Below are positions 1-9,624 of a stretch of DNA of 12,662 nucleotides, piece by piece (positions within the stretch are counted from its first letter, which is position 1; every line of letters begins with the position of its first letter). Both the position numbers and the translations under genes were made by a program. Source of the DNA: a virus (Duplodnaviria; Heunggongvirae; Uroviricota; Caudoviricetes). The stretch lies in IMG/VR virus record IMGVR_UViG_3300029873_000363, positions 1-12,662 of that record; one strand, written 5' to 3'. The notes below the pieces were generated by a model. It had not been told where the DNA came from and did not search any database. It saw only the letters and a program-made list of their open reading frames with translations.

Positions 1-249
1 ATGCGTATTGAAATCTGCATAGCCAAAGAAAAAATGACTAAAATGCCAACCGGTGCTGTGGATGCGTTAAAGGAAGAATTAACCCGACGCATCAGTAAAC
101 GTTATGACGATGTAGAGGTGATCGTAAAAGCCACCAGCAACGATGGCCTTTCTGTTACGCGCACCGCCGATAAAGATTCAGCTAAAACTTTTGTTCAGGA
201 GACTCTGAAAGATACCTGGAAGTCTGCTGACGAGTGGTTTTTTCACTAA
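1..249 (+). CDS. DinI-like protein (SOS/RecA modulator family), 82 aa
   Basis: ORF begins at window position 1 with MRIEI...; the translation has the DinI-family signature as I remember it (MRIE N-terminus, ~80 aa, acidic C-terminus ending ...[11 protein letters not shown], cf. DinI ...TWESADDWF). The upstream promoter and any LexA box lie outside the window. Confidence 0.75.
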
Positions 250-574
250 TTAACACGTAAAATCGGTAACGGCTGGAAATCATTCAATACTCGCACTATC
301 GAAAGTTCGCTAGCCAGCCGTGGCACGTTCTTGCATACGATGTGCTACGGTTTCATTCATCTCCGACCGGAAACTTCTTATACAAAGTCGATACGCCAAC
401 ATCATAAATGATCGCCACATTCTAGCGAGGAACTCCTGATGCAATTAGTCGCCCGGCCTGCGCCCATTGTTCTGGTGTTTGTTACTATGAGTGTGCAGAA
501 AAATATCGTATAATGCTCTCCTCAGCATCCGTAAAGTATCACGAACTTAGCTTTTAAATAACAAACAACCAGAT

Positions 575-604
575 TTTACACTTCATTAAATTTAGGACTA
601 ATAT
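575..604 (+). promoter_or_regulatory. Putative sigma70 promoter for the acetyltransferase gene
   Basis: TTTACA at 575-580 (-35-like), 18-bp spacer, TAATAT at 599-604 (-10-like), followed by an AAGGAG Shine-Dalgarno at 622-627 and a GTG start at 634. Read by eye only. Confidence 0.3.
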
Positions 605-633
605 GGTCGAAAGTAATAATTAAGGAGATTATC

Positions 634-1206
634 GTGTTATCTTACTTAATAGCAATTCATTTTGTTTTACTTGGGAATTCTTCTGATTTAAAAAGCTTTT
701 GGAAATCTGAAGTAATACGGCGGGAGTATATGGATATCTGGAGGCTTTTCAGAGAAAAAAAACAGCGTAACAGGAATTTCCTTTTCTGGTGGCGGCTGGC
801 TAACGAAATGTATATTAATGGTAATAAATTACATAAGAAAGCTGCTAAAAAGTTAAACAATAAAATAATTAACAAATTTGGTTGCGAGATTGGACTGGGA
901 GCAAAAATTGGAAAAGGGCTAACAATTCCTCATCACGTTGGAATTGTTGTTCATTTTGCTGTTGATGCTGGTGAAAATTTGGTGTTACGACAGAATACTA
1001 CGATTGGACAGATAGATGGTGACATACCTGGTTCAAGAGTAAAAATTGGTAGTAACGTTGATATCGGAGCTAATTGTTGCATCATTGGATTATCACGTAA
1101 AATCGGGGATAATGTAAAAATAGGCGCAATGTCTTTTATAAATAAAGATATACCATCAAACTGCACATATATAACTAAAAAGAGCGGTGTTGTATTGTAT
1201 AAATAG
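634..1206 (+). CDS. Hexapeptide-repeat (left-handed beta-helix) acetyltransferase, serine-acetyltransferase/WcaB/NodL-like family
   Basis: GTG start at 634 with a strong AAGGAG SD 6 nt upstream. The C-terminal half shows tandem [LIV]-G-x4 hexapeptide repeats (AKIGKGLTIPHHVGIVV..., VKIGSNVDIGANCCIIG..., KIGDNVKIGAMSF) that align with the CysE/WcaB catalytic domain. The gene is visibly AT-rich compared with the flanking tail genes. An alternative in-frame ATG start exists at 730. Confidence 0.7.
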   Translation: MLSYLIAIHFVLLGNSSDLKSFWKSEVIRREYMDIWRLFREKKQRNRNFLFWWRLANEMYINGNKLHKKAAKKLNNKIINKFGCEIGLGAKIGKGLTIPHHVGIVVHFAVDAGENLVLRQNTTIGQIDGDIPGSRVKIGSNVDIGANCCIIGLSRKIGDNVKIGAMSFINKDIPSNCTYITKKSGVVLYK

Positions 1207-1214
1207 AGCACATA

Positions 1215-1254
1215 AAGCCATCGATATTTCTATCGATGGCTTTTTCTTTTTATT
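1215..1254. terminator. Rho-independent terminator, probably bidirectional, between convergent genes
   Basis: Perfect inverted repeat AAAGCCATCGATA (1215-1227) / TATCGATGGCTTT (1231-1243) followed by a T-tract TTTTTCTTTTTATT on the plus strand. It sits immediately 3' of the acetyltransferase stop (1204-1206) and overlaps the tfa stop (1250-1252, minus). Confidence 0.6.
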
Positions 1255-1828
1255 GTGGGGCGACTGGCCACTCAATATCCGCTGCTACTGTTGTATCAAC
1301 ACGGTTCAGCAACACCCGATACTTTTTCCAGGCTTCCAGCAACGAGTTTTCTTCCTCCGTTGCGATTTCCAGATCTGCAGCATCCTGAAGCGGCGCAATA
1401 TGCTCACTGGCTACCTGCATCAGGTTGTTTTTTGTTTCTTCCGCCTCCCGGATCCGGAACAGTTTTTCTGCTTCCGTATCCTTCACCCAGGCTGTGCCGT
1501 TCCACTTCTGAAACTCCCCTTCCGGCGATAACCAGGTAACATTTTCCGGTAACGGACCGAGTTCAGAAATAAATAACGCGTCGCCGGAAGCCACGTCATA
1601 AACCGTTTTACCCCGATGGTCTTCAACGAGATGCCACGATGACTCATCACTGTTGAAAACAGCCACGAAGCCAGCCGGAATATCTGGCGGTGCAATATCG
1701 GTACTGTTTGCTGGCAGACCTGTATGAGGCGGAATATATGCGTCACCTTCACCAATAAATTCATTAGTTCCGGCCAGCAGATTATAAATTTTTATGGTCC
1801 GTGGTTGTTCAGTCATTCTAAAATCCAT
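1250..1828 (-). CDS. tfa: Tail fiber assembly protein Tfa (lambda Tfa homolog)
   Basis: Translation ...[60 protein letters not shown]... matches lambda Tfa as I remember it. The ORF track starts at a GTG (1834), but the ATG at 1828 preceded by GAGGTG is the likelier start (MDFRMTEQ... vs lambda MAFRMSEQ...). Confidence 0.9.
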
Positions 1829-1836
1829 GTTCACCT

Positions 1837-2727
1837 CTACTTAATATCAGAGACAGAATATTGTTTATTGAGCGTATGGGTGGGAGCACCAATAACGATG
1901 CTACTTCCGTGGCTATGTGCGCCAGAGGTGAGATTGCCTACGGGATTTTCTGGATTAAACCGGTGTGTATGCGAATCAGGGCGAGAGCGATTATTAGTCA
2001 GCACGTCATCAGCCTGATGCACATGGCTAATACAGAACTGCCCGGAACGTGAGCAATACGTCCGATAATCGCCGCATCCAATATATTTAGTATCCGCATA
2101 ACGGCAAACAGAATTACCCGGACAGTATGCATATGTGCCAAATACTGCCGACTGGCGGGATTGTGCGTATTCCCAGTTAATTGATTCTGTTTTTTTATTA
2201 AAGTTATCCCATGCCTGCTTCATCTGCCGGGCAACACTTTCAAACGGCACCTGACCACATCCGGCTCCCATTGCAGGGAATACCACAGTTTTTATTTTCC
2301 TGTCTGTCGTTGCGTGTTTATTGTGCTGAAAGATGGCAAGCAGAGCGGCCCAGGTTGCGTTATATACAGCGTCTGTTCCGTCAATTGTCAGCTGAACACG
2401 CATTGTTGGCGCATGTACCAGCCAGGGGTGATGATTATGCCCCGTTTCAATTACAAATGCAGAACCTACAGGCTGTTCGCCTAAATATTCACGAAGAATA
2501 TGATTCTGAACGCGGGACTGTAACTGAGTACCGAAGAATGCGGTAATGGCGGCATCAACGCCGCCATCCATCAGGCCGAAACTATTTGCCGCACTTACCA
2601 TGCAGTCAAATTCTCTGATTGTTTCAAATGGCTTTCCGACAATATTCACATTATCTGCGTTTGCAAATACCCGCTTAAATGCTTCCGCCATTTCTGTTAC
2701 TGGTGCAGAAAGAATGAGCGTAATCAT
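1837..2727 (-). CDS. Hypothetical protein with macro-domain-like N-terminus and Cys/His-rich C-terminus, inserted between stf and tfa
   Basis: 296-aa ORF whose ATG overlaps the stf stop (ATGA, revcomp of 2724-2727) and whose TAG stop (1837-1839) lies 8 nt before the tfa ATG. The N-terminal ~170 aa carry macro-domain-like motifs: [21 protein letters not shown] (cf. D-x-IVNAAN-x-L-x-GGGVdgAI), GSAFVIETG...WLVHAP, and [14 protein letters not shown] (cf. AFPxISTGxxGxP). The C-terminal ~100 aa have five Cys and several His ([39 protein letters not shown]...SGAHSHGSS). Confidence 0.6.
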
Positions 2728-5393
2728 GCAAGCCTCACAATATAGTTAAATGCGATGTTTTTGACGGTGTTTTCCGCGTTACCAGCAGCGTTAACGGTGA
2801 TGGTGTGTCCATGTGAACCAATCGCAACGGAGTGCGCATGAGCACCAATTGGAACAGAGTGCGCATGGTTACCTGTAGTGCTTGTGGCACCAGACCAGGT
2901 TCTGGAAGCGTTAAAGTTTACAGGAACACCATAAGTAAATTGAGAGCCCGTAAATCCATGGGCTGGCGCAGAGCCACCCAGTGTAAATGCTCCACTTGCT
3001 GTATAGAAATTACCGCTATCACTTCTGAAGTAACCGAGAGTACCGGTAATTTCCATAGTGCCTCGGCTGTGGTTATGGTCACCAGTGGCATTTGAAGACT
3101 TAGTACCATAATCAAACGACGACGTGGTTTTCGTCCCCAAATCCGTACTGGATGCACTGGCGCTGTGGGCGTGCGATTTAATGCCGTCCTGTTCCTGAGA
3201 CAATACGGCACGACCACTGGCAGGTTTGCCCTTAATCGTCCAGCCACGCATATCAGGGATCACGCCTGACGGATAAGCGGCTGCAAGTTTCGGGTAGGCA
3301 GATTTGTCAAAAGTCTGCCCCTGCATCAGGGCATAACCAGACGGAACGGTATCCGATGGCCACGGGATTGGTGCGCCAGGCGGATAAAACTGCTCTGATG
3401 GCGTATAGAGTGAATAAACTGTACCGTCCGTTAACCCTTCCGGCTTATTAGCAGAATATGCTGGTGACGTATGAATCGTCACGCTGGCATTACTGGTATA
3501 ATCCCATTGAATATTTACACCAGTCGCATAATTTCCGATTGCAACGTAAATATCGTAAGTATCACCAGATGTATTGACCCAGGCAAAATTTGTAAACCCT
3601 GTCGATGTGCGCTGCCATAAAGCACCAGTAATCCCCTTCGGATTACCATTACCTGCACGCAAAACAAGTTCAGATATACCTGCCTGTTGAGGTGAACCGA
3701 CGTTAAATCCAGCGCCACCAATCAACGTAATTGAAACAACAGAACTCGCCTGTGGCATGGTTACCGTTGCTAATTTGAACCAACCAGCACCACCGCTGAA
3801 TGACATTGTTGTTGAGTTAAGCGTACCAATATCTTTCGGCGTCAGTGTTATATCCTCCGAAAGCGCCTTACCATTCACCTTACGGTCAGAAGGTACCCGA
3901 TCATTCGCATTGTCATTCGCTGCTTTAACTGCCTTCGGTGTCGCGGCAAGCGTTTCAGACGTACTGTTGGTCGCACTGCTGAGCTGTACTATCCCCTTTT
4001 TCGTCGTGCTCGCATCCTCAAGCGCCACGGCGGATGCAATATCCTCTGCCCGTTTTGCCGCTGTCTCAGCGCGCGTTGCTGCGGATTCTGCCGTACTTTT
4101 GCTCTGTGCTGCCGCTGTCGCACTGCCAGCAGCCTCTGTCGCCTTTGTGGATGCCGTCGTGGCGCTGCTCTTCGCTGCTGACGCCTGTCTGGTCGCCTCA
4201 TCTTTTGAAGCAGACGCCGATGATGCCGATGACGCCGCCGAACTGGCGGACGATGCCGCTGCCGTTTTTGAGGATTCTGCGCTGGTTTCCGACGCTTTCG
4301 CGTTCGTTTCGGATGTCTTCGCTGAGGAAGCAGACCTCGCTGCTGCGCTGGCCTGTTCAGTGGCTTCGCCAGTCTTCGTTGTGGCTGTTGAAGCGGATGA
4401 TGCGGCGCTTTCTGCCGATTTTCCGGCGGCGGTGGCACTGACTGAGGCCTGCCCGGCACTTATTGATGCGGCACTGGCGGACGACGCAGCCGCTGTTTTT
4501 GAATCTGCCGCAGCTGAGGCACTCTGTCCCGCTGCCGTTTCAGAAGACCTGGCGTTCGTCTCGGACGTTTTGGCCGCCTTCGCAGAATTTGCTGTCGCCG
4601 TTGCCGAGGAAGCTGCGCTGCTGGCGCTCGAGGCTGCGCTCGTTTCTGATGATTTTGCCGCCTCTTTTGAAGCCGACGCATCCCGGGCTGAGGTGGCAGC
4701 TTCTGACGCTTTCGTGGTCGCGGTGGATGCAGAAGTGGCTGCTGATTGTTGTGACGCTGCGGCATTCGTTTCTGACGTTTTCGCCGCAGCGGCACTGGTG
4801 GCCGCCGCGCTTTTTGAGGACTCTGCAGCGGCAGCACTTTTTTCCGCTTCAGTGGCCTTTGTTGATGCCGTTTCTGCGCTGGAAGACGCTGACTGAGCCG
4901 ACGACGCGGCCTGTCCGGCTGACGTGCTGGCTGCGCGTGCTGAGCCTGCAGCATCAGTCGCATGGGTTGCCGCCTCACGGGCTGATGTGCTGGCATCGCC
5001 GGCTGACTTCTTCGCGGCTGCCGTGTTCTGTGCCACTGCGGACGCGTTACGCTCCACCTCTTCCACCATCACTTCAAAACGGCGCAGTGCCTCCGGTCGG
5101 ACATCATCCTCCGTCATGGCACCGAGAAAATCATTCAGCGTACCTGGTCTGGAACCTTCATAGACGGTAATGGTCCCGGCATGTGAAGGCGGAAAACCTT
5201 CAACCAGCAGGGTGACGCTGTACTGACCATGCTCAACATCCATGCTGTAACGCCCGGCTTCATCCGGATTTTCAGATGCCAGCGTGTTCACCACCACCGT
5301 GGTACTGTTACGTTTTGCTTTCAGCTGGATTGTGCAGTTCTGTACCGGTTTTCCTGTGCCGTCTTTCAGTACACCTGAAATTTTTACTGCCAT
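2724..5393 (-). CDS. stf: Side tail fiber protein Stf (lambda Stf homolog), 889 aa
   Basis: N-terminus [37 protein letters not shown]... is lambda-Stf-like. A long Ala/Ser/Thr-rich repetitive shaft follows. The C-terminus has the conserved tail-fiber tip motifs (GAPIPWPSD..., [25 protein letters not shown], repeated HxH: [26 protein letters not shown]) and ends ...[11 protein letters not shown]. The ORF is intact here. Confidence 0.9.
3986..5066 (-). repeat. Low-complexity Ala/Ser/Thr-rich repetitive region of the Stf shaft
   Basis: Stf residues ~110-470 are degenerate repeats such as [21 protein letters not shown]. The corresponding GC-rich DNA yields long spurious ORFs on other frames and the opposite strand (Ala-rich and Arg/Pro-rich artefacts). 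Confidence 0.5.
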
Positions 5394-5457: not shown

Positions 5458-6057
5458 TCAGAATTTATAACCGACACCAACGATGAAACTGTTGGTACGC
5501 CAGTCACCGCTGCCGGAGCCTTCATAAGCGACATCAACGGCCACGGATTCGGTCGGGTTAAACTGCACGCCAGCCCCCCACGCCAGAGACGTGTTGCTGT
5601 GGCGACCGTCATCACTTCCGGTCAGCACATCGTGCGTTTTCCCCGTATTGTCGGTCACCTGCAGATAATCCCCGGAGAAAGTCGACACACGGCTGTAAGC
5701 CACACCCGCCATCGCATACGCGCTGAACCATTCATTCACGCGCACAGACGGCCCCGCCATCACGCTGAACCAGCGGTTACGCACGGAATCTTCATGCCAG
5801 CGGGTATCGCTGTAATGGGTCAGCTGGCGATTCTTGTCTCCTGCATAGCTGAATGACGTCACCATCCCCAGTGTGTCCGTAAACTCATAACGGTATTTCA
5901 CGTTAATCCCGTTCAGATCATCGCTGCCGGGAACGTTCGTCGAGGCATGAAGATACCCCGCGCTCAGCGTGGACTGATGTTCAGATGCCCATGCAGGCGC
6001 ACCGGATACGGCCAGACAAATGGCTGCGGAAAAAATGGCGGCATAAAGTTTACGCAT
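5458..6057 (-). CDS. lom: Outer-membrane protein Lom (Ail/OmpX/PagC family beta-barrel), lysogenic-conversion gene
   Basis: Translation MRKLYAAIFSAAICLAVSGAPAWASEHQSTLSAGYLHAS... has a signal peptide (cleavage after AWA), alternating beta-strand pattern and C-terminal ...GVGYKF. It closely resembles lambda Lom as I remember it. RBS GAGAGG precedes the ATG. Confidence 0.92.
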   Translation of the reverse strand: MRKLYAAIFSAAICLAVSGAPAWASEHQSTLSAGYLHASTNVPGSDDLNGINVKYRYEFTDTLGMVTSFSYAGDKNRQLTHYSDTRWHEDSVRNRWFSVMAGPSVRVNEWFSAYAMAGVAYSRVSTFSGDYLQVTDNTGKTHDVLTGSDDGRHSNTSLAWGAGVQFNPTESVAVDVAYEGSGSGDWRTNSFIVGVGYKF

Positions 6058-6081
6058 AATTACCTCTCGCTTTTCTGCAAT

Positions 6082-6108
6082 AAAAAAGGCACCATTTCTG
6101 GTGCCCTT
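6082..6108 (-). terminator. Hairpin terminator between J and lom
   Basis: Imperfect inverted repeat GGCACCA (6088-6094) / TGGTGCC (6099-6105); on the minus strand it is followed by TTTTTTATTG (complement of the A-run at 6082-6087), directly 3' of the J stop. Confidence 0.45.
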
Positions 6109-6126
6109 ATATGGGTTATAACAATT

Positions 6127-9100
6127 TCAACGAATACTGATGCCGGAAGCGGCTTTTTTGGTCACAATCACCGTACAGTCGGTGATATTACCTGCCCGCT
6201 GATTGCCTTTATGGAAAACCTTAAACTCCAGAGTGACGCTTCCCCTGCCACTCGGCATATCAATAACCGCACTGTAGCTACCGGGAATGGCCCCTTTAGT
6301 TTCTCTGGATGCGATTAATACACCGTTTTTGCGAACTTCAAAACCATAACCCGTGTATCTTGTACCTCCCGGGTTATTACCACTTCCCGGATCGCTATAC
6401 GCTATTCCGTTAAAGATAATGGGCGGAATAATGATTTGACGGTCAAAGTTATGATCATCGCTGATGGTGACTGTAACCGTCCCGTTTGGTGTTTCCGTAT
6501 TACCCCACGTACCAGCCTGTTTCGGGAATGATTTGGATACAGCTTTAACGAAGTCACCTCTGACCTGAGTCGCCTCCAGCATGCCCTTAATCGTACAGTT
6601 TTCATTTACCGTGACATTGTTGAGCGTCCCGGCGTTCGCATTCACACTGCCACTGATATCCGCATTTTTAGCGGTCAGCTTTCCGTCCGGTGTCAGGGAA
6701 AATGCCGGTGGATTTCCACCGCTGGTAATGGTGGGGGCCGTCAGGCGTTTCAGGAACACTTCGTTCATGAATATCTGATCGCCCTGACCAACAAACATCG
6801 GCTTTGTGTTGCCATTCGCAGGATTAATCATCGCAATCCGGTCAGCAGCCAGAAGCACCTGACTCTGCATACCTGCTGGCGTATTCTCAATACCGGCTCC
6901 GATACCCGCAATATAAAGGCGTCCGTCCTTCATCTGCTGCAGTTTCACGGCCCACATGCTGTTCAGGTTATTATTTGTATCAACCTGAACTTTCTGTATC
7001 TGCTGGATTGCCGCGCTCTGATTTTCCAGTTTTTTATTGACGGTCTGCGTGATTTCATTGCTGACATTCGTAATGGACGTCCTGATTTCAGCCAGATCAG
7101 GCGCAAGCTGACCGTTATCAATCTGCGTCCACAGCTCCTGGGCCAGATGTGTTTTCCCGATTTCTCCTTTGAAAAAATCCAGGTAACCTTCCGCATCATC
7201 GCTCGCCCGACCGACAGCCTCCACGAATGCCGATTTGCTGACTGTGTTCACACTGCGAACGTAAAAATAATAATCATGGCCCGGCTTAATATTGATACTG
7301 GCGGCTATCCAGTACAGCGCCGTACCAAGATAGCGGGCTGTGGTTTCAACCTGCCTGATATCCGCAATCCGTTTTTCCGAGAACCAGAACTCAAACTGTA
7401 CCGTCGGGTCATAAACGGCAAGATGCGGCGTGGCGGTTATCTGAAAATAGCCCGGCGTCAGCTCAATCCTCGACGGTGCTGCCGGTGCGGCAATCCGGAA
7501 CGATACCGACGCCGGGTCGCCCTGCTGCCCCCACGCATTTACCGCCCGGACTGTCAGCCTGTAGTTCCCCAGCGCCAGTTGCCTGAAGCGGTATGTGGTT
7601 TCCGTCGTCCGGGCCGTGCTGACCAGCCGCTCACTGCCGTCATCCGCTGCCACGGTCAGGCGAAGCATAAAGCTCACCCCCTTCACCACCTTCGGCGTGT
7701 CCCAGCGCGCCAGTACCTGATACTCCCCGCTGTCTGCGGTGACTTCTGCGGTCAGGTGCTGCACCGCTGGCGGCGTGACACCATTTACCGTGCCGCTCTG
7801 GTCGCCGTCAAAGTGCGCCCCGTTATCCACGATGGCCTCTTTTTCCGGTACATGCTGCACGGCGGTGATGGCATACGTGCCGTCGTCGTTCTCACGGATA
7901 CTCACGCAGCGGAACAGGCGCTGGCGCAACGTCGGCAGCTTCAGCCCCCATACGCTGTATTCAGCAACGCCGTCAGGAACACGGCTCACTTTCACCTTCA
8001 CGCCGTCGGTGACGGACTGAACCTCCACGCTGACCGGACTCCCCTGCCCGTCAACCAGGCTTATCAGCGTGGTGCCGGAAGATGGCAGCGTGATTTCACG
8101 GTCGAGCGTCAGCGTCCGGGTCTGGCTGTTTACCGCCAGCACGCGCCCGCCGGTGCGGATACCGGCATAGTCATCATCGCAGATTTCAATGACATCGCCC
8201 GGTACATGGCGAAGCCCTTCGGCACCCACGCTGAAGTCCACGGTCTGCGTTTCCAGCAGTTCTGTTTTAATCAGCCACAGCCCGGCGCGGTGTGCCTGCC
8301 CCCGACTGGTACAGCCAAAGGCATCCATCTTCGTGACGTTACGACCGTAACGGGCAATGGCCTGCGTGTCCTCCACAAGCTCTGTCGCCGTCTCCCAGCC
8401 GTTATCCGGGTCAATCCAGTTCACCTCAACGGCATTATGGCGGTCTTTCAGGGCGCTGAAGCTGTAGCGGAACGGCGCGCCATCATCCGGCATCACCACA
8501 TTACTGCGGTTATAGGTCCACACCTTATCTGATGGCCGGTCCTGCACGAACGTCAGCGTCTGCCCGTTCCATACCGGCATACAGCGCATCGCCGAGCAGA
8601 AATCACTGAGAACATCCCACGCCTTACGCTGTGTGGTCAGCCAGGCATTACAGGTGATGCGCGGCTCCGTGCCGCCAAAACCGTCCGGCACCGACTGGTC
8701 GCAACACTGGCCGATGACATACAGCGCCCATTTATCCACATCTGCCGCACCAAGACGTTTACCCATGCCGTAGCGCGGGTGGGTCAGCATATCCCACAGA
8801 CACCAGGCCATGTTGTTGCTGTATGCTGGCTTAAACGTTCCGTCCCAGATACCGCTGTATTGCCGCGTCTGCGGGTTATAGTTCGACGGCACCTGCAGAA
8901 TGCGCCCGCGAAGATGATAATTACGGCTCACCTGCTGGCTGCCGAACTGCTCCGAATCCACCTGTACGCCGACCAGTGCCGTGTTCGGGTAGCACTGTTT
9001 CACATCGATGATTTCGGTGTATGACGACCAGAGCGTTTTGTTCTGCAGCTGGTCTGTGGTGCTGTCCGGCGTCATCCTGCGCATCCGGATATTAAACGGG

Positions 9101-9624
9101 CGCGGCGGCAGGTTATCCACCACCACCGAGGCCAGATACTGCGAGGTGGTTTTGCCCTTAATGGTGATGTCTTTTTCCGTCACCCAGCCACCATTACGCT
9201 GTATCTGAACCAGCAGGCGAACTTCCGACGGATTCCTGTCCCCCTTTGAGGTGGTTTCCACCAGTGCCTGCACACCGAAGGTAAAGCGCAGACGGTCGAT
9301 GTTTGCAGACGTAATGGTGCGGGTGATCGGCGTGTCATATTTCACTTCCGTACCCAGCACCGTCTCGGAGCCGGAGGATTCAAACCCCTCCGGCGGTGTC
9401 TGCTCCTGCTCACCGGCACGGAACACCACCGTGACACCGGAGATGTTGGTATTCCCCTCAGTGTCCAGCACCGGCGTACTGTTCAGCAGCACGCTTTTTA
9501 ATCCATCCACCGGACCTTCAACCGGCCCTTCGCTGATGGCATCGATCACACTCAGCAACTGCGTGGACTTCAGGTTGTCCTTCGCTTCGCGCGGGGTATG
9601 CCCCTTACTGCTGCCTTTACCCAT
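6127..9624 (-). CDS. J: Central tail fiber / host-specificity protein J (lambda J homolog), 1165 aa
   Basis: N-terminus [34 protein letters not shown]... and most of the first ~800 aa match lambda J as I remember it, including the fibronectin-like central region. RBS GAGGA precedes the ATG at 9624. The C-terminal ~350 aa diverge. Confidence 0.93.

Follow-up and report, generated by a model that had tools for sequence, protein, structure and literature searches.

A tfa-linked prophage acetyltransferase gene with envelope glycans as candidate acceptors

Prophage CUS-3 of Escherichia coli K1 encodes NeuO, a polysialic acid O-acetyltransferase whose modification of the K1 capsule, a surface glycan recognized by phages as their receptor, confers protection against K1 phages (PMC3046976, PMC9659370, PMC13001214). 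Here we present an analysis of a 12,662-nucleotide stretch of caudoviral DNA (hereafter the window; IMG/VR record IMGVR_UViG_3300029873_000363), which carries an acetyltransferase gene at positions 634–1206 of its (+) strand. NeuO appears to provide the best functional analogy for the product of this gene, in that both are prophage-borne, soluble, acetyl-CoA-dependent enzymes of the left-handed β-helix type encoded outside the host polysaccharide locus. However, NeuO belongs to a different β-helix branch and uses a His/Trp active site, its expression is phase-variable through 5′ heptanucleotide repeats, and it acts on the K1 capsule. By contrast, no tandem repeats were found in positions 500–1300 of the window when NeuO-like phase variation was searched for, the gene is in frame in 61 of 61 fetched copies, and the family to which it belongs is not restricted to K1.

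Oac and OacB of Shigella and GtrC and OafA of Salmonella are likewise prophage cargo, located near the attachment end or the tail genes, and they O-acetylate the O-antigen of lipopolysaccharide (LPS), thereby altering phage adsorption and antigenicity. These are integral-membrane acyltransferase-3 proteins acting on the periplasmic side (PMC9558356, PMC8952252), whereas the window protein is predicted to be a soluble β-helix enzyme that must work in the cytoplasm. The genetic logic of the locus, a surface-altering gene kept beside adsorption genes, is shared with the llp and cor genes, which differ in encoding lipoproteins or membrane proteins that block FhuA directly and not, as predicted here, an enzyme. 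The llp gene of T5 lies beside the pb5 gene and cor of phi80/N15-type phages lies near the tail genes; both are surface-masking genes and are independently expressed.

A further comparison is offered by the exchangeable fibre modules (Stf–Tfa, P2 H–G, P1 S–U and Mu S–U), whose fibre tip and tfa are reportedly exchanged horizontally among these phages, as Juhala et al. 2000 and Haggard-Ljungquist et al. 1992 are said to have described. At the locus studied here, a cargo gene lies inside the exchanged unit and, unlike in the known fibre modules, the cassette boundary (window position 552) falls upstream of the promoter region of the acetyltransferase gene. The gene is best read as a moron, that is, as self-contained cargo of a lambdoid prophage. 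Tentatively, we favour the explanation that it is expressed in the lysogen and encodes a NeuO-like sugar O-acetyltransferase that modifies an envelope glycan. The reality of the gene, the fold of its product and the conclusion that this product is not a serine acetyltransferase are much firmer than what we propose for its substrate and phenotype.

Fold, active site and annotation of the acetyltransferase

The open reading frame (ORF) at 634–1206 encodes a protein of 190 amino acids, and a RefSeq gene at identical coordinates is named 'serine acetyltransferase' (WP_000954193.1). PHROGs assigns the protein to phrog_2154, 'unknown function'. Among curated NCBIfam models, EpsC scored best (76 bits), followed by CysE (62) and WcaB (54), so that two of the three top models are named for polysaccharide biosynthesis, with CysE between them. 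All of these scores are below the respective cut-offs: 150 for EpsC; 210.65 for the CysE model TIGR01172 (62.4 bits) and 397 for the CysE model NF008349 (39.8 bits); and about 195 for the WcaB models TIGR04016 and NF007564 (53–54 bits). The Pfam Hexapep score of 26.2 bits is just under the gathering threshold of 27, and most homologues have precomputed PF00132 matches.

An AlphaFold model built from 107 homologues (predicted local distance difference test score 96.3) consists of an N-terminal helical domain (residues 1–82) and a left-handed β-helix (residues 83–180). When this model was compared with the PDB using Foldseek, 107 chains were matched at E ≤ 1e-3, the best 50 of which are all serine acetyltransferases; the top matches have TM-scores of 0.70–0.75 and cover both the helical N-domain and the β-helix. 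Sequence-level matches to PDB entries agree, with 15 serine acetyltransferases on top and galactoside and maltose O-acetyltransferases matched weakly (1e-5 to 1e-6); the chloramphenicol acetyltransferase CatB, the streptogramin acetyltransferase Vat and NeuO were not among the PDB sequence matches at E ≤ 1e-3. Profile scores, AlphaFold and Foldseek therefore converge on the WcaB/CysE-type hexapeptide acyltransferase that had been recognized from the sequence alone, and the assignment to the CysE/WcaB branch of left-handed β-helix acetyltransferases is secure at the level of the modelled fold.

To map residues, the alignment of the 107-member family was combined with E. coli CysE, the sequence of which is identical to that of PDB 1T3D. 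The catalytic histidine of CysE, His158, corresponds to His100, the histidine that this superfamily carries on a loop protruding from the β-helix, which is kept in 106 of the 107 members, and CysE Asp143 corresponds to an aspartate or glutamate at position 85 in all 107. The putative catalytic residues of the window protein are thus His100 and Glu85, the latter being an aspartate in many relatives. The residues around the CysE substrate are not retained: the Asp157 column holds proline, alanine or glycine, the Arg192 and His193 columns are variable, and the Asp92–Pro93 segment falls in a gap of the family. The window protein, which is about 80 residues shorter than CysE, ends in ...VVLYK some 10 residues past the β-helix and has no equivalent of the CysK-binding tail of CysE (residues ~245–273, with its Ile end). 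It also shares with its relatives invariant motifs of the family's own (FWWRLANEMY, RQNTTIG and IGAMSF).

The likeness to CysE (TIGR01172, EC 2.3.1.30) thus lies in the two-domain architecture and the catalytic pair, and the differences lie in length, the serine ligands, the Asp92 segment and the tail. The two also differ in their genetic setting, CysE being a core gene and the window gene mobile AT-rich cargo. Because the protein lacks the ligands for serine, the Asp92 region and the tail that binds CysK, the database name is doubtful and is probably wrong, a transfer made at the level of the fold. A true serine acetyltransferase was accordingly rejected as leading explanation, the substrate-binding residues being missing from the alignment. 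Very probably, judging from the residues that are kept and lost, the protein is an active acetyl-CoA-dependent acetyltransferase of the serine acetyltransferase (SAT) fold with an acceptor other than serine. The short SAT-like enzymes WcaB (of colanic acid synthesis) and EpsC are among the best-scoring models for the window protein, and WcaB acetylates polysaccharide sugars at the cytoplasmic stage. However, the scores are far below the equivalog cut-offs, and WcaB is encoded in the wca cluster, whereas the window gene is prophage-borne, with a DinI-like gene on one side and tfa on the other.

Composition, expression signals and linkage to tfa

Translation is predicted to start at a GTG codon at 634, six bases downstream of a Shine–Dalgarno (SD) sequence, AAGGAG, at 622–627. 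The GC content of the gene is 0.339 (0.277 at third codon positions), compared with 0.487 for tfa, 0.543 for the fibre gene, 0.56 for J and 0.53 for the whole window, and members of the family have a lower GC content than their flanks in 20 of 20 other loci. The low G+C relative to the tail genes (0.49–0.56), from which horizontal acquisition had been suggested, thus sets the gene strongly apart from its surroundings. Purifying selection acts on the gene, as indicated by a median dN/dS of about 0.12 (0.12, maximum 0.29) among 31 distinct sequences, drawn from copies of at least 78% nucleotide identity, and by the fact that the 61 fetched copies are all intact and of equal length.

The control region upstream of the gene (552–633, (+) strand) begins at the left boundary of homology with P2-like copies and contains the SD sequence and promoter-like hexamers, namely TTTACA (575–580) and TAATAT (599–604) with an 18-nt spacer. 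Six promoter-like sites were seen in the region against 3.4 ± 2.1 expected, about twice the shuffled level, an excess that is weak by itself. P2-like copies have TTGAAT and TATAAT with a 17-nt spacer about 20 nt farther upstream and an unchanged SD sequence; P1-like copies have an ATG start and an upstream region unrelated to that of the window. From these consensus matches an own promoter is plausible; of the promoter proposed in the sequence-only reading, a promoter-like sequence was retrieved, whereas its position is not conserved.

Downstream, the gene converges on tfa (1250–1834, (−) strand), the lambda-type tail fibre assembly gene (Pfam Caudo_TAP, E = 2.3e-42), which forms the end of the J–lom–stf–tfa late operon; its product is 93% identical to Tfa of the lambda-like phage HK630. 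The opposite orientation of cargo gene and late operon was already apparent in the sequence-only reading, as were the SD sequence and a terminator. The latter occupies 1214–1253 and lies in the 43-nt gap between the two genes. Its hairpin (1214–1243) has a 13-bp stem and a 4-nt loop, is followed by TTTTTCTTTTT and folds with −20.7 kcal/mol (z = −4.3; 0 of 200 shuffles fold equally well); the other strand gives z = −6.0. A T-run follows the hairpin on the (+) strand, with a weaker U-tract in the (−) direction, and the stem is kept in 11 of 11 distinct downstream variants among the fetched copies. A Qrr-like Rfam match over the 3′ end of the gene and the terminator, obtained in a scan of positions 1–3000, was dismissed as chance (29.6 bits against a gathering threshold of 50).

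The gene is present in 530 of 5,426 complete E. coli genomes, including O157:H7, O111:H8 and O104:H4 strains. Its presence is patchy, as in morons: these genomes hold 599 places with the acetyltransferase gene and 13,963 tfa-like places, about 4% of which carry it. In the reverse direction the association is nearly complete. A query spanning both genes was covered to at least 80% in 573 records, compared with 575 for the acetyltransferase gene alone, and the gene therefore adjoins tfa in essentially every case. The carriers comprise lambdoid prophages, P2-type contractile-tail prophages (in O104:H4 and O157:H7) and P1-like phage-plasmids. In O157:H7 (EDL933 and TW14359), the acetyltransferase gene has stayed intact although the surrounding prophage, which has a P2-type tail, is decayed: its tape-measure gene carries a frameshift, and an IS3-family element beside a truncated tfa stands in place of the fibre gene. 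We make no claim that the P2-like position is the P2 Z/fun site, the tail operons of the carrier prophages being convergent, unlike in P2.

As judged by blastn, the block homologous to P2-like copies (L002, L004, L085 and L088) begins at window position 552, extends across the acetyltransferase gene, the terminator and tfa, is interrupted at a macro-domain gene and continues in the 3′ end of the gene for the side tail fibre. This 3′ part (2724–3390, (−) strand), which encodes the distal, C-terminal portion of the fibre, is common to P2-like and P1-like acetyltransferase–tfa loci, and window positions 2720–2849 and 3100–3390 are 81–96% identical to sequence that directly follows tfa in four of these loci (L003, L004, L085 and L088). 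The promoter region, acetyltransferase gene, terminator, tfa and fibre tip thus move as one cassette.

The linkage extends to more distant relatives. In IMG/VR contigs, a convergent Caudo_TAP gene follows each of the 57 close copies for which downstream sequence is present, 10 of 19 relatives at 43–69% identity likewise converge on tfa (gaps of 16–87 nt), and five further relatives in this range have a co-directional tfa about 0.7 kb upstream. The same convergence is found in phiNP (47% identity), Hafnia phage yong2 (35%) and a Salmonella Mu-like prophage. Measured against the window copies, identity drops in parallel tiers for the acetyltransferase and for tfa (about 93/89–90, 65/46 and 45/40%), so that the pair appears to have been linked for long and not to have been assembled repeatedly. 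Among the 84 matches listed from a genome collection (L001–L084), which are mostly remote and under-sample close relatives, a single-sequence search detected tfa only in the E. coli loci L001–L004 and not in the distant L005–L084.

In four loci with P2-type tails (L085–L087 and L089, ~5600–7250), the acetyltransferase gene is followed by an 87-amino-acid tfa fragment, a gene for an S-adenosylmethionine (SAM)-dependent methyltransferase and a full tfa. This order suggests two tandem cassettes of cargo converging on tfa, exchanged via recombination within tfa, and suggests the methyltransferase as a second decorating enzyme in the same architecture. phiNP shows the same order as the window, with HicAB between DinI and the acetyltransferase.

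Relatives, candidate acceptors and rival explanations

In E. coli, the acetyltransferase copies stand alone, outside polysaccharide clusters. Four relatives have informative neighbours. A Leminorella grimontii homologue, 48% identical and carrying every family motif, closes a waa LPS-core operon (GT8, WaaY, MptE-like protein, acetyltransferase) that converges on the WaaL ligase gene. In prophages of Xenorhabdus bovienii, a member with 47% identity precedes by 59 nt, on the same strand, a GT25 glycosyltransferase of the LPS/lipooligosaccharide type, and the pair converges on a tail fibre gene. The Rosenbergiella member is divergent from an OafA-like sugar O-acetyltransferase (Acyl_transf_3+SGNH), and the Intestinirhabdus member adjoins ugd and the arn operon. 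Envelope-glycan modification is the function to which all four contexts point, with the LPS core as leading candidate. Of the two roles left open by the sequence-only reading, surface polysaccharide modification and inactivation of a small molecule, these loci favour the former.

The remaining contexts are more varied. The 20 flanking ORFs in nine chromosomal loci are mostly uninformative except for the Leminorella waa operon; other relatives are island-edge orphans, lie near defence genes or follow the bfp operon on a plasmid of enteropathogenic E. coli (EPEC). The last case concerns EAF-type plasmids (L096–L101), in which a 51%-identical member lies directly downstream of bfp genes among IS66 and effector fragments, and the family therefore also rides virulence plasmids without a phage context. 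In Escherichia phage ESSI2_ev040 (L198, 26.5–30.6 kb), a 40%-identical member lies at the genome end after an integrase gene and one for an 'abortive infection family protein', a position that we take to be where P2-like phages collect anti-phage genes. A single distant relative has a sulfur-assimilation gene as its neighbour, one for a SulP sulfate permease (L018, 42% identical over 113 residues); no sulfur or cysteine gene was found in any other examined context of the relatives. None of the defence models of PADLOC-DB 2.0 matched the acetyltransferase at E ≤ 0.01. In a full-text literature search, no functional study of the acetyltransferase was found, and it is mentioned only as cargo: its role has been called unknown and its presence unexplained (PMC9603915), and the gene has been entered as generic 'fitness' cargo (PMC6456863). 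The protein is not reported in the main text of an O157 proteome paper.

If the envelope-glycan explanation is right, the gene would be transcribed in the lysogen from its own promoter towards tfa, and transcription would stop at the shared hairpin. The product would be cytoplasmic and, by analogy with all solved enzymes of the fold, trimeric, with acetyl-CoA bound between subunits. His100 would act as the general base, oriented and polarized by Glu85, and would deprotonate an acceptor hydroxyl for attack on acetyl-CoA. The acceptor would be a sugar of an envelope glycan built at the cytoplasmic face of the inner membrane, the leading candidates being the LPS core or some other oligosaccharide linked to a lipid or a nucleotide. 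Once the glycan is exported, its O-acetyl group would change the surface as phages, and possibly the immune system, meet it, and the outcome would be lysogenic conversion or superinfection exclusion. The acetyltransferase gene, tfa and the fibre tip are inherited as a block that recombines among lambdoid, P2-like and P1-like phages, and distant family members hold the same position in Mu-like and other phages.

Several points weigh against this explanation. The glycan assignment draws on the gene neighbourhood of four relatives that are only ~45–50% identical, and the other chromosomal relatives are mostly orphans whose neighbours are uninformative. The evidence for a promoter consists of consensus matches only, the best hexamers of which differ in position between lambdoid and P2-like copies. 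The tail-fibre operon ends in a hot spot for cargo in general, where a methyltransferase gene has the same convergent arrangement, and the linkage to tfa could be architectural and not functional. Finally, the receptor of the lambda Stf fibre is a protein, OmpC, and not LPS. With a lambda-type Tfa and OmpC as receptor, an enzyme that masks the receptor of its own fibre is not a simple fit; because lambda-type side fibres use OmpC, a masking model needs an LPS co-receptor or a benefit against other phages.

The hot-spot argument leads to the rival explanation that carries some weight, although we consider it unlikely: an intracellular acetyltransferase with a non-glycan target, acting in defence, counter-defence or detoxification on a small molecule (an antibiotic, toxin or signalling nucleotide) or on a phage or host protein, and found near tfa because that site collects cargo. 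Such a role would suit the ESSI2_ev040 (P2-like) member beside an abortive-infection gene and an integrase gene, a Pantoea member near a Wadjet JetD gene and IS21, the phiNP member that follows HicAB, the many relatives that form orphan single-gene islands, and the SAM methyltransferase cargo in the same convergent position. It is at odds with the failure of PADLOC models to match and with the PDB sequence matches, from which CatB and Vat are absent and in which the sugar O-acetyltransferases are weak and rank under the 15 serine acetyltransferases. Four relatives within or beside LPS or surface-glycan genes also speak against it, and joint divergence of acetyltransferase and tfa to ~40% identity goes beyond what a shared hot spot would lead one to expect.

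Two further possibilities are much less probable. A real, feedback-insensitive serine O-acetyltransferase, serving as an auxiliary metabolic gene that, in the lysogen or in lytic growth, raises the supply of O-acetylserine and cysteine or turns on the CysB regulon, seems very improbable. The closest structures and sequence matches are all CysE, the catalytic histidine and acid are kept, and the short N-terminus and missing tail would remove hexamerization, CysK binding and some cysteine feedback; but the serine ligands (Asp157, Arg192 and His193) are not conserved and Asp92–Pro93 is deleted across the 107 members, the TIGR01172 score is 62 against 210.65, the family has invariant motifs of its own, and only one distant relative (L018) lies near a sulfur gene compared with several near LPS or glycan genes. 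Also very improbable, in our view, is a virion-directed enzyme that O-acetylates the tail fibre or Tfa, or a metabolite for fibre assembly. The near-absolute adjacency to tfa across four phage architectures and the joint divergence would be explained, but the gene opposes the late operon, with a terminator between them and a promoter-like region of its own; with about 4% of tfa-like loci carrying it, it is dispensable for fibre assembly; it remains intact where the fibre gene has been lost (O157:H7); and relatives occur without a phage on the EPEC EAF-type plasmids and in chromosomal LPS loci.

A more far-reaching version of the envelope-glycan explanation, which we regard as doubtful, is that the acetyltransferase, tfa and fibre tip form a co-evolving 'recognise and mask' module in lambdoid, P2-, P1- and Mu-like phages. 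If so, each fibre-specificity allele would travel with an enzyme that edits the matching receptor (the LPS core or a co-receptor glycan), and a new host-range cassette would bring the matching superinfection exclusion in a single recombination event.

The surrounding prophage end and wider meaning

The window matches the E. coli BEC1-S17-ESBL-09 chromosome at 100% identity and covers the tail end of a lambdoid prophage that is inserted there beside yecD. On the left, the acetyltransferase gene is preceded by a DinI-like gene (1–249, (+) strand) and short phage remnants (246–480, (−) strand). This phage DNA separates the gene from the host gene yecD, and the gene travels with phages and phage-plasmids, as distinct from a conserved host housekeeping gene at a prophage boundary, the alternative named in the sequence-only reading. 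The site between tfa and the attachment end is where lambda carries its b region, in line with the equivalence proposed there. RefSeq calls between the DinI-like gene and the acetyltransferase gene comprise a 31-amino-acid 'capsid protein' and a helix-turn-helix pseudogene, and positions 257–364 are ~90% identical to DNA just downstream of the tail-fibre genes of HK97 and HK106 and to the ends of many Shiga toxin (Stx) phages. These pieces look like leftovers of older cargo at the site.

On the right, tfa is followed by the macro-domain gene (1837–2727), the side tail fibre gene (2724–5393), lom (5458–6057) and J (6127–9624), all on the (−) strand, with more tail genes beyond J. A full-length match to the Rfam family IS009 (RF02111; 1287–1485, (−) strand; 219.6 bits against a gathering threshold of 117, E = 6e-55) falls wholly within the 3′-terminal third of the tfa reading frame. 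It may mean that sequence derived from tfa went into building the family, or else that the 3′ end of tfa gives rise to a processed small RNA; IS009 is among the phage-associated RNAs in a 2026 preprint.

The macro-domain gene encodes a protein of 296 amino acids (Pfam Macro, E = 5e-19; phrog_2613 and phrog_14717, 'tail protein'). Its start overlaps the stop codon of the fibre gene and just 2 nt separate its stop from the start of tfa, which places it in the late operon. It is missing from the P2-like and P1-like versions of the fibre-tip–tfa cassette and is present in 128 of the 5,426 E. coli genomes, and in Salmonella phage Gifsy-1 a macro-domain ORF is annotated beside a Tfa homologue. A weak DarG-like match was also seen (E = 0.0045). 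A counter-defence role related to ADP-ribose is conceivable for the protein, as is that of a virion enzyme. Within the tail fibre gene, at ~3900–5100 on the (−) strand, GC content jumps to 0.59–0.64 with a very strong AT skew of −0.34 to −0.50, and a 379-amino-acid antisense ORF (3757–4896, (+) strand) goes along with this biased segment, which is probably a repetitive, compositionally skewed part of the fibre shaft.

The sequence-only reading had included neither the near-obligate linkage to tfa, with movement among unrelated phage types, nor the absence of the serine ligands, nor the relatives in LPS loci. A prophage moron that encodes a surface-modifying acetyltransferase is of a familiar kind. 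What appear to be new are the use of the SAT-fold branch for such a purpose, the probable annotation error, the near-obligate and ancient coupling to tfa across lambdoid, P2-, P1- and Mu-like phages, and the placement of the acetyltransferase gene inside the fibre-tip–tfa cassette. About 1 in 10 complete E. coli genomes has this gene under a metabolic annotation that is probably wrong. If the enzyme O-acetylates the LPS core or another envelope glycan, it would be an unrecognized contributor to variation in the surface and the phage receptors of pathogenic E. coli, with a bearing on phage-therapy host range, on typing and possibly on antigenicity. If the coupling is architectural only, the gene would be another moron without an assigned function. 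The strictness and age of the coupling raise the possibility that phages swap host-range determinants and the corresponding surface-editing enzyme as one cassette.

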